64,000 nt of DNA from a virus (IMGVR_UViG_3300036399_001571:32001-96000); one strand, 5' to 3'; shown: positions 1,100-23,440, counted from the first letter of the stretch. Notes: generated by a model from the sequence alone, not told the origin. Made by a program: numbers and translations.

Positions 1100-2035
1100 A
1101 TGCCATTTGTCAATCGCATCGGAAGCGGAGCAACCCGCAAGTTCGGGTTTGGGACAGGGGTTAAACCTGGCGCACCAACGATTGGGACGGCCACACGGGG
1201 AGACCAGCAGGCAAGCGTTGTTTTTACTGAACCCGCAGTACTTGGAACTGGGGCACCTACGTATACGGCTACTTCAAGCCCAGGTGGCTTAACGGCGTCC
1301 GGTGCAAGCTCGCCAGTCGTGGTTACAGGTTTAACAAACGGTACCGAATACACATTTACAGTCACGGCATCCAACTCTTTTGGCTCGTCGACATCTGGGT
1401 CTTCAAATTCAGTGACCCCAGCAGGAGTTCCAGCTACACCTTCAGCTCCAACGCAATCTGCAGGGAACGCTTCAGTCGCCCTCTCATGGACTGCACCATC
1501 GGCCAATGGTTCTGCAATTACCGATTACAAGATTTACTACGCAACTTCAGAAGCCGGCACTTACACGCTATTCAGCGACACCGTAAGCACCACTACGTCA
1601 GTCACGGTTACTGGACTAACGAATGGCACAGCCTATTACTTCAAGATTGCCGCAGTAAACTCAGTTGGAGATAGCGCCCTGTCTGCTGCTTCTGCTTCTT
1701 CCACTCCTGCCGCTCCACCGTTCTTCCCGTTCTTCCCTACCTTCGCTCCACCGTTCTTCCCGTTCTTCCCGTTCTTCCCTGACTTCGTCGACCCATGTGC
1801 TGGCGTGAATTGCGCTGCATACGGAGCCCCACCAGGGGGAGTATGGCAATCACAGGGATTTAACACCCAACCTTGGGACCCACACTGCATTAATGCAGGA
1901 TACCCTGCAGACCCACCATACTGCTGTAACTTTGGCACCAACACATGTGGGAGCGGTAATTCGTATTGGACCTCGTATATCAGCTCAGATGGTTGTTGTC
2001 AATTTAACTTGTATGTATACTGTGCTTGCAGTTAA
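1100..2035 (+). CDS. FN3 x2 protein with Pro/Phe repeat and 10-Cys C-terminal tip
   Basis: Two FN3 domains (PGAPT...VTGLTNGTEYTFTVTASN; W.AP...ITDY...VTGLTNGTAYYFKIAAVN), then APPFFPFFPTFAPPFFPFFPFFPDF, then a Cys-rich tail. Confidence 0.85.
   Translation: MPFVNRIGSGATRKFGFGTGVKPGAPTIGTATRGDQQASVVFTEPAVLGTGAPTYTATSSPGGLTASGASSPVVVTGLTNGTEYTFTVTASNSFGSSTSGSSNSVTPAGVPATPSAPTQSAGNASVALSWTAPSANGSAITDYKIYYATSEAGTYTLFSDTVSTTTSVTVTGLTNGTAYYFKIAAVNSVGDSALSAASASSTPAAPPFFPFFPTFAPPFFPFFPFFPDFVDPCAGVNCAAYGAPPGGVWQSQGFNTQPWDPHCINAGYPADPPYCCNFGTNTCGSGNSYWTSYISSDGCCQFNLYVYCACS
1712..1786 (+). repeat. CCGTTCTTC (Pro-Phe-Phe) tandem repeat within a two-copy higher-order unit
   Basis: gctccaccgttcttcccgttcttccctaccttc followed by gctccaccgttcttcccgttcttcccgttcttccctgacttc. 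Confidence 0.9.
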
Positions 2036-2072
2036 GATGTTCACAACCAACACGCTAAAGGATTGACTATCA

Positions 2073-2306
2073 ATGGAACCAATTAACATTTATCCGCAAG
2101 ATAACCCGGACAACTTTCTATGGGTTGCTTTTGTCGTTGATGGAGAGGTTGGGGTCAAAATGCCGTTTCCACTACAAGCAAACCTATTGACAGCGGTTAT
2201 GTCATCAAACCCACAGGCTATTGTCATCACTGAAGAAGACAGACTCAATGTTACAACCGGATGGACATATAGTGACGGAGTATTCAGTCCGCCGGCAGGT
2301 GAGTGA
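2073..2306 (+). CDS. Small VVDGEV protein, possible tail-fibre assembly / cap partner
   Basis: FVVDGEV...MSSNPQAIVI...GWTYSDGVFSPP; paralog of 31253..31498; GWxYxxGxFxxP resembles tail-fibre assembly proteins. Confidence 0.7.
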   Translation: MEPINIYPQDNPDNFLWVAFVVDGEVGVKMPFPLQANLLTAVMSSNPQAIVITEEDRLNVTTGWTYSDGVFSPPAGE

Positions 2307-2536
2307 GAATGACGCCATGGCAGGAATATAAGAAAAAACTTGGCACGACCAGGCCATGGGACATGGTCAATCCAAAAGCTGAGCATGTTTCGGTAGAGGA
2401 GGCTACGGCGCGTATGGATATATGCGAATTGTGCCCAAGTCTTCTAGGGGCTACTCATCAATGCAAGGAGTGCGGATGTTTCATGAAGTTGAAGACGAAA
2501 CTCAAGAACGCTGAGTGCCCTCTTGGAAAATGGTAA
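2303..2536 (+). CDS. Cys-rich probable metal-binding protein (DUF6171-like)
   Basis: RMDICELC...HQCKECGCFMKLK...ECPLGKW pattern; 4-nt overlap with the previous gene. Confidence 0.75.
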   Translation: MRMTPWQEYKKKLGTTRPWDMVNPKAEHVSVEEATARMDICELCPSLLGATHQCKECGCFMKLKTKLKNAECPLGKW

Positions 2537-2552: not shown

Positions 2553-3212
2553 TTAATACCTGTTTCTTTCGTAAAAACCTATTTCTTTTACGAAACCAAC
2601 TACAACATACCTCACTGGTCCATCAGAAACAGTCTTTACCCCATGTTCGTACTCGCTGTTGCCAGGGAAAAATAAAAGGTCTTTTGGATTTGGTTTCAAG
2701 GCAATTTCACGATTCTTGAAGAAAATCTCCCCAGAATTGTAATCATCGTTTATATATAGTATTGAGGCATACCTGATTGACGGGTCAGTATGTTGGTCAA
2801 CATGTGATTTCAATTCCGTGCCGGGTGGCAATCTTTGCACGGTTGATAAACCGCTAAGAGTTAGAGATTGGTCGCATTCAAGTATCATTGATGACAAGCG
2901 GCGATGAATAGAGCGACAAACACCAAGATGCTCAATACCTAGTGTCTTGTCTGAAAAACCATGGGTGATTTCAAATTTTCCCTCTGCAATCAAGTTGTCA
3001 ATATCGGTTCTTCCAAACTTGAGCTTGCAAAAATTAACAACACCAGACATGTAGTGGGTTTCCCAATCTTTTTGCGTAGTGTTCTCTATTGCACTAGTTA
3101 TCGCATCTAGCTCTTCCTGTGTTATGAAATTTTTAATCCGAATCAACTCGTCGGTAATTTCTTCAAATTCCAGATTATTCAACTTGAGTTGAAGCAGAAA
3201 GTTCTCAATCAT
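2553..3212 (-). CDS. 2OG-Fe(II) oxygenase (prolyl 4-hydroxylase-like)
   Basis: HVD...YINDDYNSGEIFF...HGV...RY; start moved to ATG 3212 (ATGA overlap with the GT gene). Confidence 0.85.
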   Translation of the reverse strand: MIENFLLQLKLNNLEFEEITDELIRIKNFITQEELDAITSAIENTTQKDWETHYMSGVVNFCKLKFGRTDIDNLIAEGKFEITHGFSDKTLGIEHLGVCRSIHRRLSSMILECDQSLTLSGLSTVQRLPPGTELKSHVDQHTDPSIRYASILYINDDYNSGEIFFKNREIALKPNPKDLLFFPGNSEYEHGVKTVSDGPVRYVVVGFVKEIGFYERNRY

Positions 3213-3901
3213 TGGCGACACCACAAACAGTCACAATATTCCTCAACAAAATAACTATGATTCATTTGTTTTTCATTTCTAAGCCTATAATCTGTATCTG
3301 GCTTGTAGTCTCTGCTATGAGTGACATATCGCTGGTCGAATATCTGCGCCACTTTAGACCTGTTAGAAGCAACTGTTTTTCTAAATAAGTGATGTGTAGG
3401 TGTTTTTTTTGGTTTTGCATTATTTTTGAGTCTTTCTTCATTTTCTTCAAAATGTTTTTTTACGTCAGCTAAAAGACTAAGACCTATTTCACTATGTAAT
3501 TTAAGAATAAAATTACAATTGTTGGACCCAGGAAGCCCATTTACTTGGTCCCCATTTGGCAAGGCAACCATTTCTATTGTGTGGTTTAATTCATGAAGTA
3601 TTGGCTCTATATTTAATATTGGAATTGAATCCAAATCCGCATACATGCCGCCGTAAAAACAGGTCACAGAATATCTCCAGATATCCGATTGAGTCATTCC
3701 TGAATAATTGTCATATATTTCGGCCTCAATTGGAGATAGGCATAAAATATTTATTACTTCTTCGCGTCTTTCTTTGGGGTTTTTAAAACAATATTTCCAA
3801 TCTGGATATGTGTTTTTCCATAAGTTGCAGCATTTTTTGAAAGATTCATGAAGTTCTTCAAAGTCGCACTCATATGTTTGAAATATGTTTTTATTCCACA
3901 T
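3209..3901 (-). CDS. Glycosyltransferase, GT32/OCH1-like DXD sugar-binding family
   Basis: IFQTY...W...PDWKY...SDIWRYSVTCFYGGMYADLD. Confidence 0.8.
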   Translation of the reverse strand: MWNKNIFQTYECDFEELHESFKKCCNLWKNTYPDWKYCFKNPKERREEVINILCLSPIEAEIYDNYSGMTQSDIWRYSVTCFYGGMYADLDSIPILNIEPILHELNHTIEMVALPNGDQVNGLPGSNNCNFILKLHSEIGLSLLADVKKHFEENEERLKNNAKPKKTPTHHLFRKTVASNRSKVAQIFDQRYVTHSRDYKPDTDYRLRNEKQMNHSYFVEEYCDCLWCRQ

Positions 3902-3930: not shown

Positions 3931-4635
3931 TTATTTTGTTGTGTCATTCACATATAATCTTAACACTTTTGCTTCGTGCGAACCTATGGATTCGTTCTTC
4001 TCGTTTACTGCATCCCTGTACCAGTCGGTGAACTCTCCAGCTCGATTAAGTTTTTGCGCTGCGTACCCATAGCTCGAATTTGCTTTAAGTCTTGTGTTTT
4101 CTGGGTCCGAATAAGTTGTGATATTTATTGACGAATTATTTAAAGCAGTTAGCGATATAGGGATTATTGTGGCAATTGGTGTTCCAGCTATTATTCGTGT
4201 CTCCGCATTGGCATTTTTTGCTTTTATTGCCAGAGGTATCGGGTGGTCATAAAATGACGTGCTAATAAAGTTGGACATTGTCTCAAAATCATTATTAAAA
4301 TAATTGACTGGATTGATTGTCCAAAGACTTATGTCTTCGGCGGTTCTAAAAATTAGTCCGGTGTTTAAACTTATCGAAGACTGACCCCTGCCAGCATATG
4401 CATCAATAGGGCTTGTTATTTTTATATGGTCTGGGGTCTGGTCGTTGATTCCGTCCCATGTGAAAACTATGTCTTCTTTACAGGAGAGGCTCCACCCGAC
4501 CACATTCGCCTGCGTGACCGGGAAGCACCTATACGCATGGTTCCCTGATGTTTCGTCCATCCAGTCTCTTTTTACGGACATCTGAGAGATTTCAAAAATT
4601 GAACCGTTTGTTTTTTCAACAGAAATTTCAATCAT
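3931..4635 (-). CDS. DUF6065-like protein
   Basis: KRDWMD...HAYRCFPVTQANVVGW...GTPIATIIPI. Confidence 0.75.
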   Translation of the reverse strand: MIEISVEKTNGSIFEISQMSVKRDWMDETSGNHAYRCFPVTQANVVGWSLSCKEDIVFTWDGINDQTPDHIKITSPIDAYAGRGQSSISLNTGLIFRTAEDISLWTINPVNYFNNDFETMSNFISTSFYDHPIPLAIKAKNANAETRIIAGTPIATIIPISLTALNNSSINITTYSDPENTRLKANSSYGYAAQKLNRAGEFTDWYRDAVNEKNESIGSHEAKVLRLYVNDTTK

Positions 4636-5297
4636 TTCTCATCATTCCATTTCCTGTCGTACATATCTGGCGTATGATATTTTTTGCTGTAATCAAGCAT
4701 GGTTACGATTGAGTACTTTGTCCCTGCGGTCACCGGCATGGCTTGATGTGGGTACATGTAGTTTGACGGAAATACATAAAGGTCTCCTGCCTGTGGTTTT
4801 ATTTTTAAATTTTGCAGTCTAAAAAATAGCTCTCCGCCTTCGTAATCGTCGTTGACATATCCAACCAACGAGACCGTGCAGTTATATGAGAATCCGTGGT
4901 CTTGGTGTTCTTTGAAGTGCTGACCTGGGCCATACTTAACAAAATTCATTGCTTCCCAATACTTGAGGGACGCTATGTTGTGTTCGGAGCGATAGTCTCT
5001 GACGGCCGGAAGTGCGGAATCATAAATGTCCTGCCAAAGCGATTGTAAATTCAAGCTAACAGTGCTTTTGTCGTGTTCAATATCTGTTTTTTTAAATTTA
5101 AAATCAACACAGTCTCTGTACTCTGGCACTAATTCTTGGTATCCAACATATGCTGGCTGCCAACTATAACCAGTTGTATCGCCGACTGGTTTTAGGTTCG
5201 ATTCAATTCTATTGATAACATCAAAACTCGATTTGATTATATTTCTGTAACACTTTATGCCATGCCCAAAATCGATTTTTTCTGTCCATGTTTGCAT
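4632..5297 (-). CDS. 2OG-Fe(II) oxygenase (HxDHG subfamily)
   Basis: HQDHGFSYNCTVS...NDDYEGGELFF...HQAMPV...KYSIV; start moved to MQTW (5297), 10 nt after the upstream stop. Confidence 0.85.
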   Translation of the reverse strand: MQTWTEKIDFGHGIKCYRNIIKSSFDVINRIESNLKPVGDTTGYSWQPAYVGYQELVPEYRDCVDFKFKKTDIEHDKSTVSLNLQSLWQDIYDSALPAVRDYRSEHNIASLKYWEAMNFVKYGPGQHFKEHQDHGFSYNCTVSLVGYVNDDYEGGELFFRLQNLKIKPQAGDLYVFPSNYMYPHQAMPVTAGTKYSIVTMLDYSKKYHTPDMYDRKWNDEK

Positions 5298-5307
5298 TTG
5301 AAATGCC

Positions 5308-6084
5308 CTACTTGTATTTTCTTCTTGACCAAATTTTGTTTTTGTAAACCCCACCATCGGGCTGGCGGTAAAATCTTGCATTGTTCATGTATTTGGACTG
5401 CATTTCTTCTTGTCCCAACATTTCCACTTTGTGTTCCCAGTCTTCTCTTTTGAACGGGAAAATCTGGAGATAGGGAGTCCCAGCAGGTATTACGCCCTCC
5501 CAGCCCTCAATGAGGAAAAACGGAAAACTTCCCAGTAAATGAACCTTATCTGAGTCAACGATTCCTGTTGTGTTCAAGAATGGAAGGTCAAACCTATTCA
5601 TCGGCGTCATAAACAAGGCACTATAACCTTCTGGGAGTTCTATGCCCCAGTCAGCAAACCATGCAAAATGGTGGTCGTAATAACCCTGTGGATGTACGAA
5701 ATCCGGCATCGGCGTTCTTGGCGTGCAGAAGTTTTTATACTGACTATTTTCTACCTTGACGTCAATTAAACCTTGAGTGTTTTTGTAAAATGTCAAGTCG
5801 CAAGGAGTTTTAAAAACATATCCGGTTAAAAAGGCGTCCAGAATAGCAGGACAGGCTTTCCATGTCGGAATTTTACCGTAATCGTCTGTTGTTCCTTCTT
5901 TTGGAAATGGACAAATTTCTTTTGTTGCTTTACGGTATTCCCCGTTTAGATTTTTTTCAAAACTGTCAGCATCTTTATACCATTGTGGAGCGGCGCTTTG
6001 TGCTGCTGATGGGGCGTATTTATTTTCTTTGTCCAGCCATGGTCTATGTGGTCTGAATATTGCGATGTTGTATTGCTCGCTCAT
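5308..6084 (-). CDS. Conserved phage protein, distant DUF6065-like
   Basis: PQWYK...TWKACPAILDAFLTGY...LPEGYSALF..P.NR...GIVDSD...GTPYLQIFPFKR. Confidence 0.65.
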   Translation of the reverse strand: MSEQYNIAIFRPHRPWLDKENKYAPSAAQSAAPQWYKDADSFEKNLNGEYRKATKEICPFPKEGTTDDYGKIPTWKACPAILDAFLTGYVFKTPCDLTFYKNTQGLIDVKVENSQYKNFCTPRTPMPDFVHPQGYYDHHFAWFADWGIELPEGYSALFMTPMNRFDLPFLNTTGIVDSDKVHLLGSFPFFLIEGWEGVIPAGTPYLQIFPFKREDWEHKVEMLGQEEMQSKYMNNARFYRQPDGGVYKNKIWSRRKYK

Positions 6085-6794
6085 TGTTTATGCCCTAGCT
6101 TATTTATGTCGGTCATGACTACTACACAGTACTTTATGCCAGATTTTATTGGAAGTGACGCATGCTCGTAAATATAATTTGATGGAAAAATTGCAATATC
6201 CCCAACTTTTGGTTTGTGCACATAACCGTCAAGTCTTGGGAATTCAATTTCTCCACCCTCATAATCGTCGTTGATGTAGATGACGGCAGAAACAGTGCAA
6301 TTGTATGCCGGTCCATGGTCTGCATGTATATTGAAATGCTTACCCTCGCCATCGTATTTTACGAAGTTGAAAGCTTCATAGTAAACAACACTTATACCCC
6401 AGTATCTAGCATAGTCATCAATGCAAAACTTGAGTTTTTCATATATCTCTTGATGAAGGTCCAGAAGCTCGGAGTTGTGCTCGTCTCTTGGTCCTAGATT
6501 TTCTTGCTTGTATTTGAAATCGTAACAGTCTCTTGCTTTTTTTATCGGAATATTAGAATTTGTTACCTGGGCTTCGTTCCAGCTGTATTTTTTGTTCCCG
6601 GACAAATTTGACTCAAGAATCTTGATGTATCTATTTGAATCTTCAAGCGAAAAAGTATTTTGGTATATGTTTAATCCTAGTGCTGGATTTTGGGCTGTAA
6701 TTGTTTCACTGGCAGCTCGATGGATTCTATTTGACGCAGTCTCTGACCTGTCTTTTGTGAACCATGGAATTGCGTTTTCATCATAAATACTCAT
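6081..6794 (-). CDS. 2OG-Fe(II) oxygenase (HxDHG subfamily)
   Basis: HADHGPAYNCTVS...NDDYEGGEIEF...HASLPI...KYCVV. Confidence 0.85.
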   Translation of the reverse strand: MSIYDENAIPWFTKDRSETASNRIHRAASETITAQNPALGLNIYQNTFSLEDSNRYIKILESNLSGNKKYSWNEAQVTNSNIPIKKARDCYDFKYKQENLGPRDEHNSELLDLHQEIYEKLKFCIDDYARYWGISVVYYEAFNFVKYDGEGKHFNIHADHGPAYNCTVSAVIYINDDYEGGEIEFPRLDGYVHKPKVGDIAIFPSNYIYEHASLPIKSGIKYCVVVMTDINKLGHKQ

Positions 6795-6834: not shown

Positions 6835-7134
6835 ATGGAATTAATAGGAACATGGTTCATAACCGCAACCTCGCCCCTGGGAAAAGAGACATATAACCTG
6901 CGTTTGAATGACGATGGTTCTGGCTCAATTTCACATGACAGGGGAATCGTGGAATTTTCAGATGCTCTAATCAGCACCTCTGACGAGTCCATGACAGTGA
7001 AGATTTGCGGCCACACAGACATACCAATGAGCGTCGACTTTCTGTGTCAATTTGAGTCAGTAGGCAAATCTCTTGCTGGATTTGTAGAAATCGGCAAATA
7101 CGCAAACATCGAAATAAACGGGGTAAAGATATGA
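6835..7134 (+). CDS. Hypothetical small beta-rich protein
   Basis: ORF beginning LIGTWFITATSPLG; ATGA overlap with the GPx-like gene. Confidence 0.6.
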   Translation: MELIGTWFITATSPLGKETYNLRLNDDGSGSISHDRGIVEFSDALISTSDESMTVKICGHTDIPMSVDFLCQFESVGKSLAGFVEIGKYANIEINGVKI

Positions 7135-7754
7135 GCATCAAGTCAGTTTTTGATATGCCGATAAAATCTGTAGATGGAACGTTTGATGTTATGGACTCGG
7201 TTCGTGGCAAGGTTTGCTTATTCACGAACATCGTCACCAAGACTGGCTACACCCCAAAATGTAGCCCCATCTGGTCTTACGCAAGAGCTGCCAGACAATT
7301 ATGGGAGCTACAGCAGCTTCATGAAATGTTTTCAGACAAAGGTTTTAGCGTTGTGGGATTTCCGTGCAATCAGTTTGGCCAAATGGAACCATCCGACAAT
7401 GAGGATATAAGTCAATTCATATCAGAGGCCTATCCATTTGTGACTTTCCCAATTACAGAAAAAATTGAAGTAAACGGTCCGGGCGAACATAAAATATGGA
7501 GTTTCCTAAAAGGTGACACCGTTCGTGCTTTTGATGACAGCAAGGCAGATGGTTCAGATAAAGCTGCATCCGGGCAGAACCTAGCTGGACAAGCGATAAT
7601 GCGCATACCTCACAACTATGAGAAATTCATGGTTAGCAGAGAAGGTCAGCAAGTTGCGAGATTGAACTGGGCCGACCTCCCACTTGCCGAACAGCCGCTT
7701 GCAGCGGGCTCCTCATGGACCGTTATAGAGGCAGTGAAGTCTCTTGTAGGTTGA
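7131..7754 (+). CDS. Glutathione peroxidase-like protein (atypical active site)
   Basis: RGKVCLFTN...GFSVVGFPCNQFGQMEP...FPITEKIEVNG...NYEKFMV; Thr replaces the canonical peroxidatic Cys (VTKTG). Confidence 0.8.
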   Translation: MSIKSVFDMPIKSVDGTFDVMDSVRGKVCLFTNIVTKTGYTPKCSPIWSYARAARQLWELQQLHEMFSDKGFSVVGFPCNQFGQMEPSDNEDISQFISEAYPFVTFPITEKIEVNGPGEHKIWSFLKGDTVRAFDDSKADGSDKAASGQNLAGQAIMRIPHNYEKFMVSREGQQVARLNWADLPLAEQPLAAGSSWTVIEAVKSLVG

Positions 7755-7756
7755 TT

Positions 7757-8755
7757 ATGAAAATGCCTTCGACCCCGACCATTGGGGCCAATGAACTTAA
7801 AGAGATAAGTGAATTAGTTGTCGAGGACCTTGGCAGTGGAATAGTCGTTTTTAGAAACGCTTTTTCCGTTGAGGACTTTATTCTCAGACATATAGACGAT
7901 TGTGCTGCAGAGGCACATAAGAGCAGATGGTCGTATGTAACCGATGAGGATGGGGTTGAATACGGGATAAACGAGGACGGCTTTAGATACCGCCTAGAAG
8001 ACGTCCCAAATGCCCCTGTAAGGCTCCTGGAGCCCGTTACAGAGGCGACAAGCCCCAATGTGGTCGAATACTTCACCTATCTTGAGGACGCAATCTACAA
8101 GTGTCTAATACGCTATACGGACATGTTTCCGCTGATAGTCGGAAGCCTCTGGTGGAGGACCAGGGGTCACATACTCAGATATGACGGTGGGGGCATTCTT
8201 GGGTGGCATCAAGACAATGACACGAACTACAAAGTGACCCAGGGTGTCAGGTATATGCCAAGGGGGCAGGTGGCGCTCCGACAGACCGCTGGAGCCCTTG
8301 CGTATTTCAACGACTGCGTTGACACTAAGGAAGAACTTGATGGCACCAACTTTTCTGGCGGCCATCTTAAGTTTGCATACCTCGGGATTGACTACAAGCC
8401 CAAAAAGGGGGACATCATTATGTTCCCTACAAACTACATATGCGCTCACGGTGTAACAAAGATGGATGGTGGCACAAGATATGCATATCTCTCGTTCTTC
8501 GGACAAGGCGGAACAGATAATGCTGCAAACATAAGAATAAAGGAAAAAGACGCGAGTATTCAATGGTGTGAGCCAGTTTGGTTCGACAACATCTATGACG
8601 ACTACGAGTTTTATTGCAAGTCTGAATACTCAATCTGGTCAAAACCAACCCCAGGTTTAGAGCTTGGCTCAAACCCTGTATTCCAAAATAGATGCGTCAC
8701 TCAATACGGCGATACGCACACTGCGCTGGAGGTGAACCAAGTTGAAACGATATGA
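7757..8755 (+). CDS. 2OG-Fe(II) oxygenase (WW-GH subfamily)
   Basis: LGSGIVVFRNA...MFP...LWWRTRGHILRY...HQDND...HGV...RYAYL; start moved to 7757. Confidence 0.85.
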   Translation: MKMPSTPTIGANELKEISELVVEDLGSGIVVFRNAFSVEDFILRHIDDCAAEAHKSRWSYVTDEDGVEYGINEDGFRYRLEDVPNAPVRLLEPVTEATSPNVVEYFTYLEDAIYKCLIRYTDMFPLIVGSLWWRTRGHILRYDGGGILGWHQDNDTNYKVTQGVRYMPRGQVALRQTAGALAYFNDCVDTKEELDGTNFSGGHLKFAYLGIDYKPKKGDIIMFPTNYICAHGVTKMDGGTRYAYLSFFGQGGTDNAANIRIKEKDASIQWCEPVWFDNIYDDYEFYCKSEYSIWSKPTPGLELGSNPVFQNRCVTQYGDTHTALEVNQVETI

Positions 8756-15561: not shown

Positions 15562-16323
15562 TTAGTCCTTAACGAAAGCCGTGTATCCGTAACTTTCAGA
15601 GTTGTGAAATGTGCTTCCATTTGAAAACTTTAGCACTTCGTGTAAATCACTTAGTGGGTGCAGGTTGTAATCGTCTCTGTAAATCTTCCCGGAATTGTTT
15701 GTTGAGTTTATCAGCAGCACACCGCCAGAAGACAGGGAGCCAATGCATTTTTCAAGCAACTCTATATCGTAAGCAACATCCCAGCCCATAACTTGAATTA
15801 GGTCAAAACCGGAAGCCTCTCCGTCGCCTATCTCGTCTGGCTCGACAACGCCATAACTTGTATCTCTAAGGCTTTCCGAACCGATACTCATGGAGTGGTC
15901 ACGTAGAAAAGTTTCAAAATTATAAAGAGATTGATTGTTAACAAAATTTATGCTGATGTTTTTTCTCTTAGAGAATTCTATGAATTGCGAACTCCACAAA
16001 TCCGGACTAAAAAACAGTATTTTTTCTGGATTCTTGACAGACATAAACAACTCAACCGAGTTATGCATGTTTGCCATTATCTCTCTCCACCCAGTCTGTG
16101 GGTTTAGGAGCAAATCCATATACCAAACCCCCTCCGAAGTACCCCTGGATGCGATTGACATATTCAAGTTCAAGGATGCTCGCCAATCAATTGCTTTTTG
16201 CGCTGACTCAAAGACCTCGTTAGTTATATCTTCCCAGGATGATTCCGTCCCCAGAACACGCTGCATGGGAGTATTACTCAACAGATGCGTAACCATTGCA
16301 GTACGTAGCCACCTATTGTCCAT
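15562..16323 (-). CDS. Hypothetical protein, possible class I SAM methyltransferase-like fold
   Basis: C-terminal FDLIQVMG...CIGSLSSGGVLLIN resembles MTase strands 4-5; no clear motif I. Confidence 0.45.
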   Translation of the reverse strand: MDNRWLRTAMVTHLLSNTPMQRVLGTESSWEDITNEVFESAQKAIDWRASLNLNMSIASRGTSEGVWYMDLLLNPQTGWREIMANMHNSVELFMSVKNPEKILFFSPDLWSSQFIEFSKRKNISINFVNNQSLYNFETFLRDHSMSIGSESLRDTSYGVVEPDEIGDGEASGFDLIQVMGWDVAYDIELLEKCIGSLSSGGVLLINSTNNSGKIYRDDYNLHPLSDLHEVLKFSNGSTFHNSESYGYTAFVKD

Positions 16324-16633
16324 TTTCAGACGCCTTTGCCAACTTGTAGTTCCAGTATGCCTCTCGTGCAATACTTGTCATCTTTACATTTATTTTTGCC
16401 AAAAATCTTGGTATTGAATTAGACGTATAATCAGCGCTTGCGCCTCCCCTAATGTCACTGCTGTACTTCCAGAGCTGGCGTATTTTTACAGCTGCGTAAT
16501 CAATCCTCATTGAATCAATGTCGCTTGGGTCTTGGTCTGTAATAAAACATATGACCGCAAGTTTTTGTTCATTTCTTTTGGCGTCTTTTTCGGCGTCGTA
16601 CAAGTTTGCTCCGCCACTTTCCCTAGTTCTCAT
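16313..16633 (-). CDS. Small hypothetical protein (paralog family with 16941 and 17184)
   Basis: EQKLAVICFITDQDPSDIDS; overlaps both neighbours. Confidence 0.6.
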   Translation of the reverse strand: MRTRESGGANLYDAEKDAKRNEQKLAVICFITDQDPSDIDSMRIDYAAVKIRQLWKYSSDIRGGASADYTSNSIPRFLAKINVKMTSIAREAYWNYKLAKASENGQ

Positions 16634-16931
16634 TTGCTATTTCCTCCACTAATTCGTTACGGGTGAAGTCTCCAGGTTCTGTTTCTTCCCATTTTCTCTG
16701 TGGGTCATTTGACTGGAGTAGGTCGCAAAAAAAGGCAGCTCCATCTGGGAGTTCAAAGGATAAAAGCGCTGGATTCCAGCGAGGAACTTGGCTATCCCTA
16801 TTCGGGTTTTGCATTGGTTCTTGGATGAATGGATAATCCGGGTCCATATCTGGGCATATTTCATACCTCCCAGAATTTAGTGCAATTTCGACTATTGAAA
16901 TCTTCCGTGGTATTTTTGGAGCTATTTTCAT
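16623..16931 (-). CDS. Hypothetical protein
   Basis: ORF tightly packed within the operon. Confidence 0.6.
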   Translation of the reverse strand: MKIAPKIPRKISIVEIALNSGRYEICPDMDPDYPFIQEPMQNPNRDSQVPRWNPALLSFELPDGAAFFCDLLQSNDPQRKWEETEPGDFTRNELVEEIANEN

Positions 16932-17465: not shown

Positions 17466-18167
17466 CTACGGATTGGCCAATTTCGGCAGACCAGTGAATG
17501 TCGGCCCTATCCGATTATCGTCAGCGTCAAGACCTGTACGAATCCCTTTGGTCCAAGTCCATGGTTTTTCAATACCATTTCGCGCCTTGAGTTCACCATA
17601 TTTCATTCTAGAATCCACCAGCTCGGCATCGTCCCAGAAATTTGAAACAATAACTTCGGTGTTTTCCAGAATTGAATTATCGTAAATATTAAAAAAACAA
17701 AATGGACTTCCTGCTTCAAAAACTACAGGCTCTCCAATTTTTGTTATTTTCCAGTTCATTTGAGATTCATCCGGCCACCAGTAGCTGGGTATTGTCGCAG
17801 TGAGCGGTATTGCTCCATCTACAAAATAGTTTGGAGAGCCTGAAAACCACGTGTTGTAACCTTCTTCAGTATTAATGACCCACCCCATATGGATGGAAAT
17901 CATTCCTATTATTGAAGATGTAGCCTGAACGCGACCGGATGAAGATATCTCGCCAGAAAGAATAACGGGAGGAGTATTTCCTCCATCCCACTGGACAACA
18001 AGGTCTTCCTCCATTTGCAATTCCCATCCGTAGACGTTTGCAACAGTCATTGGCAGGCACTGATAAGCGTGTTTATTGTAGGTGTTATCCATCCAGTCTC
18101 TTTTAATACGAGACTGTTCTATAACAGGTGGTTTCGAGTGCATTTTTTTAAGGAATAACTTTGTCAT
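17466..18167 (-). CDS. DUF6065-like protein
   Basis: KRDWMD...HAYQCLPMTVANVYGW...WFSGSPN; paralog of 3931..4635. Confidence 0.8.
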   Translation of the reverse strand: MTKLFLKKMHSKPPVIEQSRIKRDWMDNTYNKHAYQCLPMTVANVYGWELQMEEDLVVQWDGGNTPPVILSGEISSSGRVQATSSIIGMISIHMGWVINTEEGYNTWFSGSPNYFVDGAIPLTATIPSYWWPDESQMNWKITKIGEPVVFEAGSPFCFFNIYDNSILENTEVIVSNFWDDAELVDSRMKYGELKARNGIEKPWTWTKGIRTGLDADDNRIGPTFTGLPKLANP

Positions 18168-18902: not shown

Positions 18903-19436
18903 TCATCCTACACCCTCAAACCAGAGCGGCAACACCAAGCGATAGCCGTTTTTTACATTATCCACATAGTGCGAATAATCGATTCCGCTTGGGAAAAGCA
19001 CGCAGCTACGAGCAATTGGTTTGTATGAAATAGATAATTTTGGAAAAACTAGTTCTCCTCCTAAAAAATCATCATTAAAGTAAACAATCGAAGAAACAAC
19101 AAAATTTGAACAGCCATCCTTGTGGGAGCCATCCATGTTGACATTGTCTGCATGCTCTTCCGGTTTGTGGCCGACCTCCGTTTTGAACAAATTTGGCACA
19201 CAGGAATCAAGACTCAAACCGAACATTTCCTCAGCAGCAATTCGCACCCTTTCGGAAATAGAAAAAAGAATACCGTAGACAAAATCGTCTAAACACAAAA
19301 TATAATCACTACTGTAATACCTTACGCAATCATCGTCTTTTGCGTGATTTTCAACTTCTGGATATTTATTTACAAATTCAATAATTAACGAGCGTTCTTT
19401 CTCGGAAATAAAATTAAATTCATAGAATATTTTCAC
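18903..19436 (-). CDS. 2OG-Fe(II) oxygenase
   Basis: HADN...YFNDDFLGGELVF...HYV...RLVLPLW. Confidence 0.85.
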   Translation of the reverse strand: MKIFYEFNFISEKERSLIIEFVNKYPEVENHAKDDDCVRYYSSDYILCLDDFVYGILFSISERVRIAAEEMFGLSLDSCVPNLFKTEVGHKPEEHADNVNMDGSHKDGCSNFVVSSIVYFNDDFLGGELVFPKLSISYKPIARSCVLFPSGIDYSHYVDNVKNGYRLVLPLWFEGVG

Positions 19437-20066
19437 TCACTTCTCCACAGTATAAAAAGATGGCGTTGTATACCTGTAGCCTTTTTCAATCATGGTCACA
19501 CCATGCAAATAATTAACATCTCCTGGGTGTATTACTGCTAAACCTGGTCTTGGTTTAACGCTGATTTCGTGTTGCGGATAATAAAGTTCGCCACCGTCAA
19601 AATCATCGTTGTAATAAAATAACGAGTTTATATCGTAATTTACAAAAGCGTTTGGTCTTCCATCATTGAGCTGTTTGTCTGCATGCGGGCGTTGCTCTAT
19701 CCCGGGTCGCCACTTCATTATCACGGGTGGTCGGACTGATACCTGTACATTGAAAATATTTTCAATTGTGTTCTTCATTTTATGTATATATTTATCTATT
19801 ATTTTATGGACATCAGGATTTAGTCTAAGAATGATTTCGCTGCTGCACTGTCTATCATTCCAATAATCAGCGTTGTACAAACATGTTCCATCTTCCGAGT
19901 AAACGCTTTCTGCTTCATTGTTCCACTCGTTTATAGTTGGGCAAAAATTTTGTATTTTGTTTAGGTCTTCTTGGTCTATAAAATTTTCGATTATATGAAT
20001 ATTTTCTGGACCGCTACCAAAATGGCCCGGTGGTATTTCCCATGGTGAATTTTCAATTGCCGACAT
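19437..20066 (-). CDS. 2OG-Fe(II) oxygenase
   Basis: HADK...YYNDDFDGGELYY...HGV...RYT. Confidence 0.85.
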   Translation of the reverse strand: MSAIENSPWEIPPGHFGSGPENIHIIENFIDQEDLNKIQNFCPTINEWNNEAESVYSEDGTCLYNADYWNDRQCSSEIILRLNPDVHKIIDKYIHKMKNTIENIFNVQVSVRPPVIMKWRPGIEQRPHADKQLNDGRPNAFVNYDINSLFYYNDDFDGGELYYPQHEISVKPRPGLAVIHPGDVNYLHGVTMIEKGYRYTTPSFYTVEK

Positions 20067-20084: not shown

Positions 20085-20846
20085 TTACCGTTTCTGCACC
20101 AAATCATACAAATATTGGTCTATCTCAGAACGTCGTTTTATTTCTTTTATGTGGCTTTTATCTGGTTTGAATCCATTTTTATTTGAACAATTTAATGTGT
20201 TATAAATTGATTTATCCAAAGAAAAACCATGTGATTTTTTTAATTTTTGCTCAAGCCAGCTAATTGCCTCTAATCTTTTAGGAAGCGAAAACAAGTTCAT
20301 ATATTCAATTAACTCTTTTATCCCATCTTCGTCCGGCATGTCATTTTCTATAAAAACAATATTTTCATCATTCCGAACATCGTCATTACTAAGCGACACA
20401 AGAGACTTGTCAACAAATGCAATTCTGCAAAACAACATTTTTGACTGTATGTTTCCAGAGTTTGAAAACAGCTCATTAACCCCAAAGGGTGTCATGTTCC
20501 CATAGATGAACTCATCCATGTATTCATTCGACATTTTTAAACCAGCGCCAACTGATGCGTAAGCCGCAATACTCACAAAATGCTCTACTGGGTCTCTGAC
20601 TATTGAGAAAACTTCAAAGCCGTCGTTATTGTAAACAATTGGATTTTTTGCAAAGTGTCCAGATATGAAAGGAAAGTCTCTCATTCCTTCGTCGTCGTAC
20701 ATTAGCTGTGATTCATGTGCGTCTGGTAAATACACATCAACAATTCCATTATTGTAAAATGTTTTCCATAGTGCGTGGCAAATACCCATTCCTGAAGTTC
20801 TGGGTATATGCAAGTGGTACAAGCGCTTCATAAATTTATCGTGCAT
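20085..20846 (-). CDS. Sulfotransferase family 2-like protein
   Basis: HLHIPRTSG (5'-PSB-like), FISGHF, SIVRDPVEHFVS (3'-PB-like). Confidence 0.7.
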   Translation of the reverse strand: MHDKFMKRLYHLHIPRTSGMGICHALWKTFYNNGIVDVYLPDAHESQLMYDDEGMRDFPFISGHFAKNPIVYNNDGFEVFSIVRDPVEHFVSIAAYASVGAGLKMSNEYMDEFIYGNMTPFGVNELFSNSGNIQSKMLFCRIAFVDKSLVSLSNDDVRNDENIVFIENDMPDEDGIKELIEYMNLFSLPKRLEAISWLEQKLKKSHGFSLDKSIYNTLNCSNKNGFKPDKSHIKEIKRRSEIDQYLYDLVQKR

Positions 20847-21585
20847 CAAGAATTCTTTTTTGTTCTTTAGTAAAAAGTATGTTGTAAATTTCAAAATCTA
20901 GCCAAATTTTTGACATGATTAAATTTTTATGTTTTTTGCTTATCTTAAAATCTAGTCTTGGTGTTGAATTTACTATCTCAATGCTGTTCTCTATTTTTAT
21001 CTGAAACAAATCATACAAATACGCATTTAAAATATTGATAAAATAATCTCTATTTACAACAGTTCCAATAATTATGTTTTCAATTTTATTCATCACATCT
21101 TCTATTGATTGTGGTTTTTCCACAAACACAACTTTTTCGTGATTTGCAGTTTGCAATGCGAGGTATGAAGTCTTTGAATAAAGAAAACAAGACTGAGGGT
21201 TTTCGCAGCCGGACATACCCTCAAATTGAGACAACATTTCATTGCCCTCTGTCAAAAAAAAATCAAGAAAATCTTCCGTGAACGGTTGATTCGTATAGCT
21301 CGCAGCGTATTTTAATGTGCTTAGGTATTGTTCGTATGGCTCACGAATCATAGAAAATGAAAAAATGTTTTTAACTGTTTCTATTGGATTTCTCCCGAAA
21401 TGTCCACAGATTATTTCATTTGTTTTGGCTGTATCTGGGTTGAATACAAATTCAAATTCGCCCGGCAAATACACAGAAGGCTTAACTTTGTTTTTGCATT
21501 TACGAGCAGCATTTAACAAGTCGTACTGCATCTTCATTCCGGATGTTTTTGGTATGTGCAAAAAATAAGCTTTTTTATATTTCAT
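20836..21585 (-). CDS. Sulfotransferase family 2-like protein, tandem paralog
   Basis: FLHIPKTSG, IICGHF, SMIREPYEQYLS. Confidence 0.75.
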   Translation of the reverse strand: MKYKKAYFLHIPKTSGMKMQYDLLNAARKCKNKVKPSVYLPGEFEFVFNPDTAKTNEIICGHFGRNPIETVKNIFSFSMIREPYEQYLSTLKYAASYTNQPFTEDFLDFFLTEGNEMLSQFEGMSGCENPQSCFLYSKTSYLALQTANHEKVVFVEKPQSIEDVMNKIENIIIGTVVNRDYFINILNAYLYDLFQIKIENSIEIVNSTPRLDFKISKKHKNLIMSKIWLDFEIYNILFTKEQKRILDAR

Positions 21586-22189
21586 TAATTTTAGCCATGT
21601 CAACCAACATTTTATTTTTTGTTGGAACCCAAAAATGGGCAGATGTGTACCGCACGCCAGAAATAATTTCGTTAACTCCGTGAGTGTAATTTCTGTTTGA
21701 TGGGAAAAATATGAGTGTCCCAGGTTTCGGTTTAAGTTTTATGTGATATTTTGGGAAAAAAATTTCTCCGCCCTCATAGTTGTCGTTCAAATACATAATT
21801 GAACCATAATCAACTATGTAGTTGTATGTAGGCCATCCACCTGCGGTTTCTCCGTCAGCATGAAGGTCTTGTCTTTCGCCTGGATGCCATTTCCTTAAAC
21901 CTGGATTTGCTTTTTCGAGTTCTCTACCAAAATGATATTCAATTTCATATTGAACATCATTTACACAATTTTGCAGTATCTGGTGTATCTGCGGAGAATT
22001 GTTTTGTATTTGAATATGTGTATGAATACTGTCAGAACCTAGTGGGCTCTGTGTTCCCCACTCAGTTGTTTTTTTGCAATATTCGTATATTTTTTTTACA
22101 TTTTCCGCAGAAATAAAATTTTCTTTTATAACTATGTTTCCAGGGTTTGAAAATGGAAGAGACTCTACATCAATCCAATCTGAATCCAT
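21575..22189 (-). CDS. 2OG-Fe(II) oxygenase
   Basis: HADG...YLNDNYEGGEIFF...HGV...RYT. Confidence 0.85.
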   Translation of the reverse strand: MDSDWIDVESLPFSNPGNIVIKENFISAENVKKIYEYCKKTTEWGTQSPLGSDSIHTHIQIQNNSPQIHQILQNCVNDVQYEIEYHFGRELEKANPGLRKWHPGERQDLHADGETAGGWPTYNYIVDYGSIMYLNDNYEGGEIFFPKYHIKLKPKPGTLIFFPSNRNYTHGVNEIISGVRYTSAHFWVPTKNKMLVDMAKINEI

Positions 22190-22198
22190 CTACAGCGC

Positions 22199-23440
22199 TC
22201 ACTTAAATCCTGGAAAGAATGACGGAGGGAAGAACGGTGGGAAGAAAGGTGGGAAAAACGGTGGGAAAAACGGTGGGAAGAAAGGTGGAAAAAATGGAGG
22301 GAAGAATGGCGGGAAGAATGGAGGAAAATAAGGTGGAAAGTAAGGTGGGGCAACTGGTGTAACCGAACCTGAAGTTGCAGATTGCGAGCCATACGCGTTT
22401 GATGCCGTTACGGTAAACGTATAAGAAGTACCGTTGCTAAGACCAGTAAGGGTGACTGGTGATGCCCCAGTTGATGAAACCCCACCAGGGGACGAAACTG
22501 TTGTATGCGTTGTAGCACCAGTTCCAGCAGTGGCATTTGTATATGTAATAGTTGCTTGCGCGTTGCCGCCAGCAGCAGAAACGCTCGTTGGCGCTCCTGG
22601 TCTATTTCCTGCAGTAACAGAGTTTGATGATACTGACGTTGCAGAGCCGTATGTCGTAGATGCACTGACGGTGAATGTATAAGCGGTTCCAGCTGTTAGC
22701 CCAGTTGCTCTGATTGGACTTGTACCAGTAAAAGTCAAGCTGCCTGGAGTCGTGGTTACCGTATAAGTTGGAGAACCAGTCCCAGCTGAACCAGGAGTGA
22801 AGGGGACATCGATTGCTCTGTCCACGTTTTGAACTATTGCTGCGGTACCAATTGTTGGAGCGGTTGGAGCGTTACCTGCAGTCACTGAGTTTGAAGAACC
22901 AGAAGTTGCTGAACCAAATAGGTTTGATGCAGTAACGGTAAACGTATAAGCGGTTCCAGCAGTTAGGCCGGTAACTCGAATTGGGCTAGAACCAGTTGCG
23001 GTTATTCCACCGGGTGATGATGTCGCGGTAAAAGTTGTTACACCAGTTCCTGCAGTTCCAGCTGTGTATGGAACATCAATTGCTCTATCGACGTTTGCGA
23101 CAATTGAAGCAGTTCCAATTGTTGGTGCACCTGGGTTTTGGCCGATTGCAACAGACCCAGTTGTGACAGTGTCGGATGGAACTCCATAGTTTGTGTTTGC
23201 TACTAGAGAAAATGTATAAGTTGTTCCAGAAGTAAGACCTGTGAGTGTTATTGGTGAGCTAGATGCTGAAGCACTAACGTCTCCAGGGCTAGACGTCACC
23301 GTATAGGTAATTGTGTCTTTGCCAATATATTCAGACGGGGTAAAAGATATTGAAGCTACTGTGCCTGCGCCGGTATTGGTCGCAACGACATCTGTCGGTG
23401 TCGTTGGCTTTTTACCGCCACTATCTTTTAGTGCTTCCAT
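22199..23440 (-). CDS. FN3 x4 protein with C-terminal (PPYF)2(PPFF)8 repeat
   Basis: Four PxAPT...SSPG...VTGL..GT.YTF FN3 units, then the Pro/Phe repeat, ending PPSFFPGFK. Confidence 0.85.
   Translation of the reverse strand: MEALKDSGGKKPTTPTDVVATNTGAGTVASISFTPSEYIGKDTITYTVTSSPGDVSASASSSPITLTGLTSGTTYTFSLVANTNYGVPSDTVTTGSVAIGQNPGAPTIGTASIVANVDRAIDVPYTAGTAGTGVTTFTATSSPGGITATGSSPIRVTGLTAGTAYTFTVTASNLFGSATSGSSNSVTAGNAPTAPTIGTAAIVQNVDRAIDVPFTPGSAGTGSPTYTVTTTPGSLTFTGTSPIRATGLTAGTAYTFTVSASTTYGSATSVSSNSVTAGNRPGAPTSVSAAGGNAQATITYTNATAGTGATTHTTVSSPGGVSSTGASPVTLTGLSNGTSYTFTVTASNAYGSQSATSGSVTPVAPPYFPPYFPPFFPPFFPPFFPPFFPPFFPPFFPPFFPPFFPPSFFPGFK
22229..22348 (-). repeat. 10 x 12-nt degenerate repeat encoding PP(F/Y)F
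   Basis: Units differ at synonymous positions (CCA/CCT/CCG, TTC/TTT) while the peptide is conserved. Confidence 0.9.

Follow-up and report, generated by a model that had tools for sequence, protein, structure and literature searches.

Candidate cassettes for oxidation of Pro/Phe-tailed fibre proteins in an oxygenase island of an uncultured phage

In an uncultured 172.5-kb phage, a block of 2OG-Fe(II) oxygenases is joined to tail-fibre genes whose products carry Pro/Phe repeats. In hundreds of phage fragments, these repeats and two classes of P4H-type oxygenase share their gains, losses and moves, and for this reason we regard the repeats as the likeliest, putative substrate of the enzymes. 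We propose, with a probability of roughly 55%, that the window (the whole 64,000-nt stretch analysed) holds two cassettes through which the phage would oxidize its own fibre-associated proteins after translation. The opening gene of each would be the one that closes a run of tail-fibre genes and encodes an FN3 protein with a low-complexity Pro/aromatic tail; P4H-type oxygenases would come next. We infer that, with late expression, the oxygenases would hydroxylate this tail, most probably at proline and possibly at aromatic residues, and that the spacer, strongly hydrophobic as (PP[F/Y]F)n or (P/PP)FF, would become stiffer and more soluble once hydroxylated, serving the virion as a rod or an adhesive. 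The first-pass annotation had also read the locus as a virion-protein modification system; that reading is strengthened by co-occurrence, phylogenetic contrasts, a transfer, the enzyme fold and the fibre context, and loses its glycosylation and RiPP elements as well as its generality, with its sulfation element weakened.

Gene content of the island and its fibre setting

The island had been described as a ~19.6 kb block (2553-22189) with 15 2OG-Fe(II) oxygenase-type proteins, and Pfam searches bear this out (Table 1). Eleven of them (2553, 4632, 6081, 7715, 8742, 10245, 10982, 11869, 18164, 18903 and 21575) match PF13640 above its gathering cut-off of 27 bits; 13376 (24.2 bits) and 19437 (24.4 bits) fall slightly under it, and the remaining two are 12739 (PF13759) and 14865 (an Asp/Arg hydroxylase, PF05118). 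In a six-frame search, all 12 PF13640 matches of the whole genome fall inside the island. The 15 oxygenases form at least five groups, with pairwise identity of at most 53%, and are contiguous with the fibre genes; from the fibre genes through 17466 all genes lie on one strand with a maximum intergenic gap of 18 nt, a spacing that would fit late co-expression. The GT32-like, desaturase and GPx-like calls were upheld, an MTase-like call for 15562 was not confirmed (E 0.06), and the DUF6065-type genes 3931, 5308 and 17466 and the NAD-binding 9706 had been overlooked.

The repeat genes are the ends of tail-fibre gene runs. FN3 genes with Pro/Phe repeats do flank the island on both sides, but the left one does not, as had been thought, end in its repeat: an ~80-aa tip with 10 Cys comes after it. 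The right one lies on the same strand as the 21575 oxygenase and ends 9 nt before it, as first annotated. The left gene is a paralogue of 22199 and of a third repeat gene, 31551; the 9-nt repeat units of 31551 are 100% identical, and the repeat units of 22199 differ at synonymous sites. Across related loci, the N-terminal domains of the tail proteins vary from a 60-aa domain up to four FN3 repeats, and the C-terminal F-K of the Lys-end class is invariant. The Pro/Phe repeat is far from chance; a reversed control pattern gave 0 matches in every genome searched. In 4 other loci, a homologue of the 116..1093 protein lies upstream of the PFF gene, and the C-terminal domain of the 23444..24244 protein likewise recurs upstream of PFF genes.

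Table 1 Features of the island and the adjoining fibre genes, with positions in the window.
Position	Strand	Feature	Evidence or remark
116..1093	+	Fibre-region structural protein, directly upstream of left FN3-PFF gene	phrog_5906; virion structural phrog_32822
1100..2035	+	FN3 protein, mixed PPFF/PFF spacer, Cys-tip class	PF00041 E 5e-20, 71.9 bits
2073..2306	+	Small ORF, VVDGEV...GWxY	Paralogue of 31253-31498; homologue in G056
2303..2536	+	Small Cys-rich (zinc-ribbon-like) ORF	Matches in G050, G056, G058, G066, G067
2553..3224	-	C-type (Arg) P4H-like oxygenase	PF13640; HVD...H194...R205
3209..3901	-	GT32-like glycosyltransferase	PF04488; overlaps 2553 by ATGA
3931..4635	-	DUF6065 partner of 4632 oxygenase	PF19541 E 2e-24; ATGA overlap
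4632..5381	-	A-type (Lys +10) P4H-like oxygenase	PF13640 E 5e-15; A1 alignment
5308..6084	-	Divergent DUF6065-like partner of 6081 oxygenase	hhalign vs DUF6065 alignment: 97.3%, E 2e-11
6081..6794	-	A-type oxygenase	Orthologues 75-83% identity, after PFF/Cys-tip genes in 73/77 loci
6835..10248	+	Plus-strand block	99-aa ORF; GPx-like 7131-7754 (PF00255); B-type oxygenases 7715, 8742; NAD-binding 9706
10245..16931	-	Second minus-strand run, oxygenases	B-type 10245, 10982, 11869; PF13759 12739; sub-threshold 13376
10245..16931	-	Second minus-strand run, rest	Desaturase 14044-14868 (PF00487); Asp/Arg hydroxylase 14865; 15562, 16313, 16623 without assigned function
17466..18167	-	DUF6065 partner of 18164 oxygenase	PF19541 E 3e-43; invariant C37
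18164..18898	-	A-type oxygenase of minimal cassette	Present in PPFF-K cassettes on MAG contigs
18903..20066	-	Two C-type oxygenases, 18903 and 19437	19437 orthologues near Lys-ended PPFF gene, 62/68 loci
20085..21603	-	Two paralogous sulfotransferase-like proteins (weak)	HIPxTSG and REP motifs nearly invariant
21575..22189	-	C-type oxygenase, begins 9 nt after PPFF gene	PF13640
22199..23440	-	Four FN3-like repeats, Lys-end class	Ends (PPYF)2(PPFF)8-PPSFFPGFK; PF00041 64.5 bits
23444..24244	-	Fibre-like protein	Tail and virion phrogs; upstream neighbour in 29 loci
31253..31498	-	Second VVDGEV small ORF	Paralogue of 2073..2306
31551..32591	-	Third FN3-(PFF)5-Cys-tip gene	Inside fibre module; no adjacent oxygenase
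32588..35647	-	Tail-fibre protein upstream of third PFF gene	phrog_23837 and tail-fibre phrogs

Linkage of Pro/Phe tails and oxygenases

The co-occurrence check suggested by the first-pass annotation was run in both directions and was strongly positive. PF13640 matches occur in 44 of 49 whole IMG/VR records with (PPFF)3; most of these records have 6-11, and contigs of 13-19 kb are no exception. When loci were fetched by the oxygenase alone, a same-strand repeat ORF lay within 3 kb upstream in 73 of 77 loci of the 6081 type, and a Lys-ended PPFF gene lay within 3 kb in 62 of 68 loci of the 19437 type; most of these linked contigs come from a few uncultured lineages, and about three events, two contrasts and one transfer, are truly independent. 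In 119 short loci, a median of 147 bp separates the PFF ORF from the oxygenase closest to it. In 596 Gb of prokaryote genomes, there are six genuine in-frame PPxFK ORFs, on five contigs, all in or beside this type of cassette: three of the loci have fibre, tail and oxygenases, and three are tails beside fibre genes.

The class of tail matches the class of enzyme. Of 38 Lys-ended PP[F/Y]F tails left after dereplication, 37 have a C-type (Arg) oxygenase behind them, and of 38 Cys-tipped tails, 37 have a pair of A-type (Lys) oxygenase and DUF6065; genes of the 21575 type come first downstream of Lys-ended tails in 18 dereplicated loci. In the window, Lys-ended tails would be paired with the C-type oxygenases 21575, 19437, 18903 and 2553, and Cys-tipped tails with the A-type oxygenases and their DUF6065 partners (6081/5308, 4632/3931 and 18164/17466).

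The association holds in two phylogenetically independent contrasts and in one transfer between unrelated phages. We built a core tree from 49 proteins (16,886 columns), which has the topology (G000,(G056,G067)100,(G058,G066)98), where G000 is this phage. The complete relatives without repeats are G067 and G066, and each pairs on the tree with a carrier of repeats and an array: G056 has repeats and 10 PF13640 matches, whereas its sister G067 has no repeat and 1 match; G058 has repeats and 6 matches, whereas its sister G066 has no repeat and 0 matches. Linkage and joint loss are thus established, and so is joint movement. The complete 108-kb phage G050 shares 11 reciprocal-best ORFs with G000, at a median identity of 41%; the five cassette enzyme genes are collinear between the two at 50-83% identity and lie directly behind G050's own PFF gene, whose FN3 part is 46% identical. 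The cassette has been transferred jointly between these unrelated phages.

Several points count against the tails as substrate. Synteny can persist without an enzyme-substrate relation, the third PFF gene has no oxygenase beside it, and the A-type block of the window is inverted relative to its own Cys-tip gene. Fifteen diverged enzymes also far exceed the need of a two-residue repeat. Minimal conserved cassettes have only 2-3 oxygenases, so most of the 15 island enzymes may have other targets, the B-type and remaining oxygenases among them; the same may hold for the desaturase and the GPx-like protein.

Enzyme fold, partners and further modification

The gene content is matched by intact catalytic residues: all 13 PF13640-type proteins of the window have HxD...H with Lys or Arg at +10/+11. 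The A-type alignment has an invariant H157, D159, H211 triad and 2OG-binding K221, and the C-type alignment an invariant H128, D130, H188 triad and 2OG-binding R198. The 19437 protein folds as a P4H in an AF2 model (pLDDT 91.5). Its best structural match is the PBCV-1 P4H 5c5t (E 1e-9), and its top matches, at E 1e-9 to 1e-8, are 5c5t, P3H1, B. anthracis P4H (3itq/5hv0), LH3 and PHD2; an EF-Tu-modifying P4H is also among the close matches. This fold check by model covers a single C-type protein, and the A-type was checked by profile search, where the best match is B. anthracis P4H (5hv0, E 3e-6). By structure, the tail-linked enzymes are protein prolyl/lysyl hydroxylases, with hydroxylase activity predicted.

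There is precedent for a viral P4H, that of PBCV-1, acting on Pro-rich repeat peptides. Known P4H substrate contexts are X-Pro-Gly or poly-Pro/Ser-Pro, and we know of no Pro-Pro-Phe-Phe substrate of a P4H, which also counts against the tails. Like the island, PBCV-1 encodes a P4H-type enzyme (vCPH, 5c5t), but it is a single enzyme of a eukaryotic virus, ~15% identical, with (Pro-Ala-Pro-Lys)n-like rather than Pro-Pro-Phe-Phe substrates, and it comes without an enzyme battery, a DUF6065 partner or a fibre context. Each A-type oxygenase of the island is translationally coupled to its dUTPase-fold DUF6065 partner. The model of 17466 has a dUTPase-like fold (AF2 pLDDT 79), and its best Foldseek matches are dUTPases (E 3.5e-5). 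A PDI-like subunit is absent, and the dUTPase-fold partner stands in its place.

The further steps that had been suggested fare less well. Glycosylation after hydroxylation, as in hydroxyproline O-glycosylation of the extensin/Skp1 type, would call for a glycosyltransferase conserved with hydroxylase and substrate, whereas homologues of the GT32-like gene occur in just 3 of ~270 related loci. The two sulfotransferase-like proteins have a nearly invariant, PSB-loop-like YxLHIPxTSG, invariant R100 and P102 in the REP motif and one weak 27-residue profile match to HS 6-O-sulfotransferase (HS6ST, E 8e-4), but no Pfam match; the sulfotransferase call is weak, and with it the suggested sulfation step. 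Nor is the pathway strictly RiPP-like, as a leader peptide is missing from the candidate substrates, which are FN3 proteins of 311-413 aa; Pfam searches found no RRE, protease or transporter family in the island.

Alternative readings and related systems

The oxygenases might act on other proteins, such as fibre proteins, FN3 domains, the Cys-rich tips, the terminal Lys or host EF-Tu and ribosomal proteins, with the Pro/Phe tract only a passive spacer. The tracts do occupy the place of PT-type linkers, and in some loci (L067, L070) they continue into (APTE)n or (PT)n; the structural matches to LH3 and the EF-Tu-modifying P4H, and the invariant F-K of the Lys-end class, also speak for such targets. 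We consider this unlikely: G066 and G067, with 0 and 1 oxygenase, still encode fibre-gene homologues and Gly-rich proteins, and collagen-like triplets as well, and the enzyme class tracks the tail class, not the variable N-terminal domains.

It is more doubtful that the array serves to make or modify a small molecule or a lipid and sits beside fibre genes as the usual insertion site of accessory islands. The fatty-acid desaturase, the LpxO-like Asp/Arg hydroxylase and the GPx-like and NAD-binding proteins would suit this, as would the related Syn9 array, with its DUF6065-like gp43, two Trp halogenases and no Pro/Phe repeat, which was read as secondary-metabolite biosynthesis (Iyer et al. 2010, PMC2938197). 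However, the island has no NRPS, PKS, precursor-supply or export genes, the desaturase and the Asp/Arg hydroxylase occur in just 6 and 11 of ~270 related loci, and the best structural matches are all protein hydroxylases. Nor does island placement alone explain the near one-to-one match of tail and enzyme class, or the joint loss and joint transfer. Finally, that the oxygenases are auxiliary metabolic genes drawing down 2-oxoglutarate or repairing DNA, as 2OG/NtcA modulation and DNA repair were proposed for cyanophage 2OG oxygenases (Sullivan et al. 2010, PMC3037559), is very improbable: consuming 2OG needs neither at least 13 diverged paralogues with intact active sites nor a fixed gene order behind fibre genes, no island oxygenase resembles AlkB, and the tail-linked subfamilies have only distant homologues in cultured cyanophages (28-42% identity over part of the protein).

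The tandem array type itself has been known since the 2010 description of Syn9; a Pro/Phe-repeat substrate link for such arrays was not found in the literature searched. Like the island, Syn9 gp41-gp54 is a tandem array of many diverged 2OG dioxygenases immediately behind the tail-fibre block, and it includes a dUTPase-fold protein with a conserved Cys (PMC2938197); gp43 matches DUF6065 profiles at E 2e-7 and 4e-9. Unlike the island, where Pfam searches found no halogenase, Syn9 has its two Trp halogenases and a JmjC/MINA-like member, and our A- and C-type profiles have no match at E < 0.01 among its array proteins. Its authors proposed a secondary metabolite, whereas we favour virion-protein modification. 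The expectation that Pro/Phe tails give phage 2OG oxygenases generally a substrate fails, with no such repeat anywhere in the genomes of Syn9 (10 tandem dioxygenases) or S-SCSM1 (24). In variant cassettes of G064 and G067, an A-type-like oxygenase and DUF6065 lie beside a His-rich, not a Pro/Phe, protein, and halogenase-like genes are present.

The proposed oxidation of fibre-associated proteins has a parallel in bacterial operons where collagen-like or phage tail-collar proteins are combined with beta-hydroxylase/PhyH dioxygenases and sulfotransferases, and for which Iyer et al. 2010 (PMC2938197) predicted hydroxylation of the repeat or tail protein, followed by sulfation. In both, dioxygenases and sulfotransferase-like genes accompany a structural protein of repeat or tail type; the dioxygenase families, the Gly-rich collagen-like substrates and the cellular setting differ, and that system is likewise a prediction. 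Collagen and extensin systems (C-P4H, plant P4H with Hyp-O-glycosyltransferases), with which we group the mimivirus collagen lysyl hydroxylase/GT, share P4H/PLOD-type enzymes acting on a repetitive structural polypeptide, and the window too has a glycosyltransferase; this one is not conserved with the cassette, and the repeat is without Gly or Ser positions. Among the minor genes of the region, each VVDGEV small ORF comes after a Cys-tipped FN3 gene, and the small Cys-rich ORF is kept in relatives both with and without the island.

Gene content of the island and its repeat genes

Pfam scans over 34 ORFs bear out the 15 2OG-Fe(II) oxygenase-type proteins that the first-pass annotation had claimed between 2553 and 22189. 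The window spans bases 32001-96000 of a 172,519-bp IMG/VR virus, which CheckV rates as "complete" (genes are named here by their first coordinate in the window). Eleven of the 15 exceed the PF13640 cut-off and two (13376 and 19437) fall marginally under it; the others are one PF13759 protein and one Asp/Arg beta-hydroxylase. A six-frame search of the whole genome gave twelve PF13640 matches, every one of them inside the island. The paralogues are at most 53% identical to each other, which marks them as old, and most belong to groups A, B or C (see table). The HxD...H motif and a basic residue at +10/+11 are kept in 13/13 PF13640-type proteins. Group A has Lys at this site; groups B and C have Arg. 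Every A-type gene shares an ATGA overlap with a gene of the DUF6065 type (PF19541). On the minus strand, from the fibre genes to 17466, all gaps are 18 nt or less, and scanning the island for promoters and terminators returned no more sites than scanning shuffled sequence. The methyltransferase-like call made earlier in this block found no support. A 77-aa Cys-rich, zinc-ribbon-like ORF at 2303-2536 is kept in five compared phage genomes (G050, G056, G058, G066 and G067), among them phages with and without the oxygenase island.

The two FN3 genes with Pro/Phe repeats described earlier are present, but the total is three, and each is preceded by a fibre-type gene (116, 23444 and 32588 for 1100, 22199 and 31551, respectively). 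The 21575 oxygenase starts 9 nt past the stop codon of 22199. The 12-nt units of 22199 (22222-22349) are 84% alike, with differences at synonymous sites, and the PFF-coding repeat of 31551 (31641-31688) is a perfect 9-nt microsatellite of 5.3 copies, 100% identical; from these repeats, the 31551 tract looks recently expanded and the 22199 tract old. Two genes downstream of 31551 lies a weak GNAT acetyltransferase-like protein (30777-31244; Pfam E 4e-4, under the cut-off). The 1006-aa fibre gene at 27316-30336 contains a further 12-nt tandem repeat (28838-28969; 11 copies, 65% matches).

Features of the island, its repeat genes and related loci
Feature	Position or locus	Basis or remark
FN3, mixed PPFF/PFF spacer, ~80-aa tip with 10 Cys	1100-2035	
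Four FN3-like repeats, (PPYF)2(PPFF)8-PPSFFPGFK, then stop codon	22199-23440	
FN3, (PFF)5, 6-Cys tip	31551-32591	Inside fibre module
Oxygenase group A	4632, 6081, 18164	
Oxygenase group B	7715, 8742, 10982, 11869, 10245	
Oxygenase group C	2553, 18903, 19437, 21575	
Oxygenases outside groups A, B and C		Three singletons
GT32-like glycosyltransferase	3209	Pfam scan
Fatty-acid desaturase	14044	Pfam scan
GPx-like protein	7131	Pfam scan
NAD-binding protein	9706	Pfam scan
DUF6065 proteins	3931, 17466	Pfam scan
Third DUF6065-type protein	5308	Profile comparison, probability 97.3%
Variant cassette	L396 (G064) 3703-9171; G067 10889-17582; Syn9 gp38-gp43 (L414 15344-21843)	
Pro/Phe tract leading into Hint/intein-like domain	L007, L026, L044, L056, L063, L067, L068, L086, L091, L111, L112	

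Linkage and class matching of tails and oxygenases

Co-occurrence of tails and oxygenase arrays across phage genomes, the first check proposed in the first-pass annotation, was examined from both directions, and the association is strong. In the repeat-first direction, a DNA pattern for (PPFF)3 matched at least 119 IMG/VR contigs. Among the matches listed, almost all are in frame; many of the ORFs end in PPxFK, and others run into Cys-rich tips, FN3 or Hint-like domains. Whole-record searches of listed matches found PF13640 in 44 of 49 contigs, usually 6-11 times each, and one 18.7-kb contig alone carries 11. In the short loci listed, the closest oxygenase homologue lies a median of 147 bp away from the repeat ORF, with fibre-type genes upstream and A- or C-type oxygenases downstream, mostly on the same strand.

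Across 596 Gb of prokaryote genomes the pattern turned up just 22 times. Six of these hits are genuine in-frame PPxFK ORFs; they come from five MAG contigs, and every one lies in or beside this type of cassette. Three of the loci (L199, L204, L211) show fibre, tail and oxygenases, with a 19437-like gene leading to an 18164-like gene and DUF6065 as far as the locus extends. L216 has fibre, tail, a short oxygenase-like ORF and an opposite-strand 19437-like gene, then the 18164-like gene and DUF6065; in L208 and L212 the tail follows fibre genes and nothing further of the cassette is shown.

The enzyme-first searches gave the same picture. Eighty loci collected with the A-type alignment, blind to repeats, carry orthologues of 6081 (75-83% identity), and a same-strand Pro/aromatic-repeat ORF lies within 3 kb upstream in 73 of the 77 that were evaluable. 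For the seventy-eight loci collected with the 19437 protein (57-95% identity), a repeat ORF, nearly always Lys-ended, lies within 3 kb of the orthologue in 62/68 evaluable cases. Minimal cassettes contain just 2-3 oxygenases.

The kind of tail also matches the kind of enzyme. We dereplicated identical tails and scored the first oxygenase within 1.5 kb downstream. Tails in which a PP[F/Y]F repeat ends in F-K (n=50) are followed first by a C-type oxygenase in 37 of the 38 having one; tails in which a PPFF/PFF spacer leads to a Cys-rich end (n=49) are followed by an A-type oxygenase, again in 37 of 38. Nearly all units of the Lys-ended tails are PPxF (696 PP vs 19 single-P units), with Tyr making up ~16% of aromatic residues, and the Cys-tipped tails are a mixture of PPFF and PFF (526 vs 481). 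The right side of the window fits this rule, 22199 being followed by 21575; on the left there is an A-type block, but it is inverted relative to 1100. At 11 loci among the matches listed, the Pro/Phe tract runs directly into a Hint/intein-like domain (C..DTL...AKDI.VGD); judging by this junction, the proteins of this third class of tail may cleave themselves where the tract ends.

Shared ancestry versus independent gain and loss

Linkage of this kind could reflect descent from one ancestral phage. Given that the marker with which relatives were collected turned out to be a 664-aa class II ribonucleotide reductase (142067-144058 of G000, the window's own phage genome; L313), we verified kinship by whole-genome reciprocal best hits and a tree. 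The marker is 79-100% identical among the 80 best-matching IMG/VR contigs, and its best cultured matches reach 47% only. Whole-genome comparison identified as relatives G056 (170 kb), G058 (141 kb), G066 (148 kb) and G067 (159 kb), the last three with terminal repeats. All four share 63-102 reciprocal-best ORFs with the window's phage at 51-61% identity. Maximum likelihood on 49 core proteins, none of them from the island, gives the tree (G000,(G056,G067)100,(G058,G066)98).

Within each pair the sisters differ as predicted, giving two independent contrasts: repeat genes are present in G056 (10 PF13640 matches) and G058 (6), whereas G067 (1) and G066 (0) lack any P[F/Y]F repeat. Fibre-gene homologues nevertheless persist in these last two genomes, as do Gly-rich proteins and even triplets of collagen-like type, so the enzymes track the tails and not the fibres. 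In G066, GPT/GPA triplets (19559-20065; L398-L399) sit on a homologue of the 23444 fibre-like protein, in a genome with zero PF13640 matches. G061 seemed at first a counter-example, its 6 oxygenases being unaccompanied by the PFFP(P)FFP pattern, but it proved to encode FN3-(PPYF)3-PPRFK ahead of its array.

The cassette has also crossed between distant backbones. The complete 108-kb phage G050 shares just 11 reciprocal-best ORFs with the window's genome (median 41% identity), and the RNR-like protein common to both is only 35% identical. Even so, G050 encodes, in unchanged order, homologues of 6081 (83% identity), 5308 (67%), 4632 (75%), 3931 (59%) and 2553 (50%); this block (93401-99248; window 2553-6794) directly follows G050's own PFF gene, whose FN3 part is 46% identical. 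In the closer relatives G056 and G058, by contrast, 6081, 4632 and 3931 find no better match than 18164/17466-type genes (28-44% identity), and 5308 has no match. This pattern argues that the A-type cassette moves between phage backbones, landing beside PFF genes, and, with its inversion relative to 1100, that the window's left A-type/DUF6065 block was probably acquired horizontally. Together, the sister contrasts, the resolution of G061 and the G050 transfer argue against mere shared ancestry.

The tails as candidate substrates

Pro/aromatic tails and two P4H-type oxygenase classes are associated very strongly and specifically, and in part independently of phylogeny. The AlphaFold2 model of 19437 (pLDDT 91.5) has its best structural matches (E 1e-9 to 1e-8) in the PBCV-1 viral collagen prolyl hydroxylase (5c5t), human P3H1, B. 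anthracis P4H, the lysyl hydroxylase LH3 and PHD2, and a search with the A-type profile brings up B. anthracis P4H, LH3, PiuC-type hydroxylases and PBCV-1 P4H; all named, characterised matches are protein hydroxylases. We judge it somewhat better than even (about 0.55) that the tails are the substrate of these oxygenases, and we infer the reaction, the residue it would modify and its consequence for the virion. A search for oxygenase-PFF fusion proteins found none. The DUF6065 model (pLDDT 79) has a dUTPase-like fold, a lead from the fold search only; the profile matched no PDB sequence.

The glycosylation step proposed to follow hydroxylation is not conserved, with homologues of the GT32-like gene in only 3 of ~270 related loci; given this scarcity, and that of the desaturase (6 loci) and the Asp/Arg hydroxylase (11), these genes look like cargo rather than core. 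The sulfotransferase-like pair keeps PSB-like and REP motifs, with a single weak match to HS6ST. It is possible, if doubtful, that widespread uncultured phages encode a Pro-Pro-aromatic-Phe polymer on fibre-accessory proteins and turn it into a poly-hydroxylated surface polymer through class-matched batteries of hydroxylases, joined in some lineages by sulfotransferase-like enzymes. On this reading the polymer would play in phages the part of extensins or mussel adhesive proteins, and which enzymes a phage encodes, and how many, would determine the chemistry at its virion tip and, through it, adsorption.

Few unexplained genes are as common in aquatic phages as those for 2OG-Fe(II) oxygenases, and we know of no substrate identified for their tandem arrays, known since Syn9 (2010). 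The tails provide a concrete, genetically linked candidate for two subfamilies. If this link is confirmed, phages would be seen to tailor their own receptor-binding apparatus enzymatically, and protein hydroxylation would gain a new repeat chemistry; labelling such oxygenases as host-metabolism genes would then call for caution.

Among cultured phages, megablast with the island and tblastn with the third FN3-PFF protein and DUF6065 found no match, so at the sensitivity of tblastn these cassette families are unseen in isolates; 6081 has only distant homologues there (28-42% identity over part of its length). Literature searches on phage PPFF repeats, DUF6065 and phage virion hydroxyproline found nothing relevant. 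An initial guess of a T4-like cyanomyovirus, from a 44%-identical fibre protein, was dropped; a search for T4 gp23 (PF07068) found nothing in the genome or 19 relatives, and is uninformative because the controls likewise gave nothing.

Two cultured phages limit the reach of the substrate reading. Iyer et al. 2010 (PMC2938197) described the Syn9 dioxygenase cluster and proposed secondary-metabolite synthesis, and S-SCSM1 has 24 oxygenases (PMC9602691). The Pro/aromatic repeat is absent from both entire genomes, so Pro/Phe tails cannot explain phage oxygenases generally, as had been suggested; the tail link holds for the A and C subfamilies specifically. Like the window's island, the Syn9 array is placed after fibre genes, and Syn9 gp43 matches the DUF6065 profiles built here. 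In G064 and G067, a variant cassette combines a His/Pro/Gly-rich fibre-region protein, an A-type-like oxygenase, a Trp-halogenase-like FAD protein and a DUF6065-like protein, with no Pro/Phe repeat present. Syn9 gp38 has a His/Gly-rich stretch similar to that of this variant-cassette protein, and the general theme may thus be aromatic low-complexity segments on fibre-region proteins.
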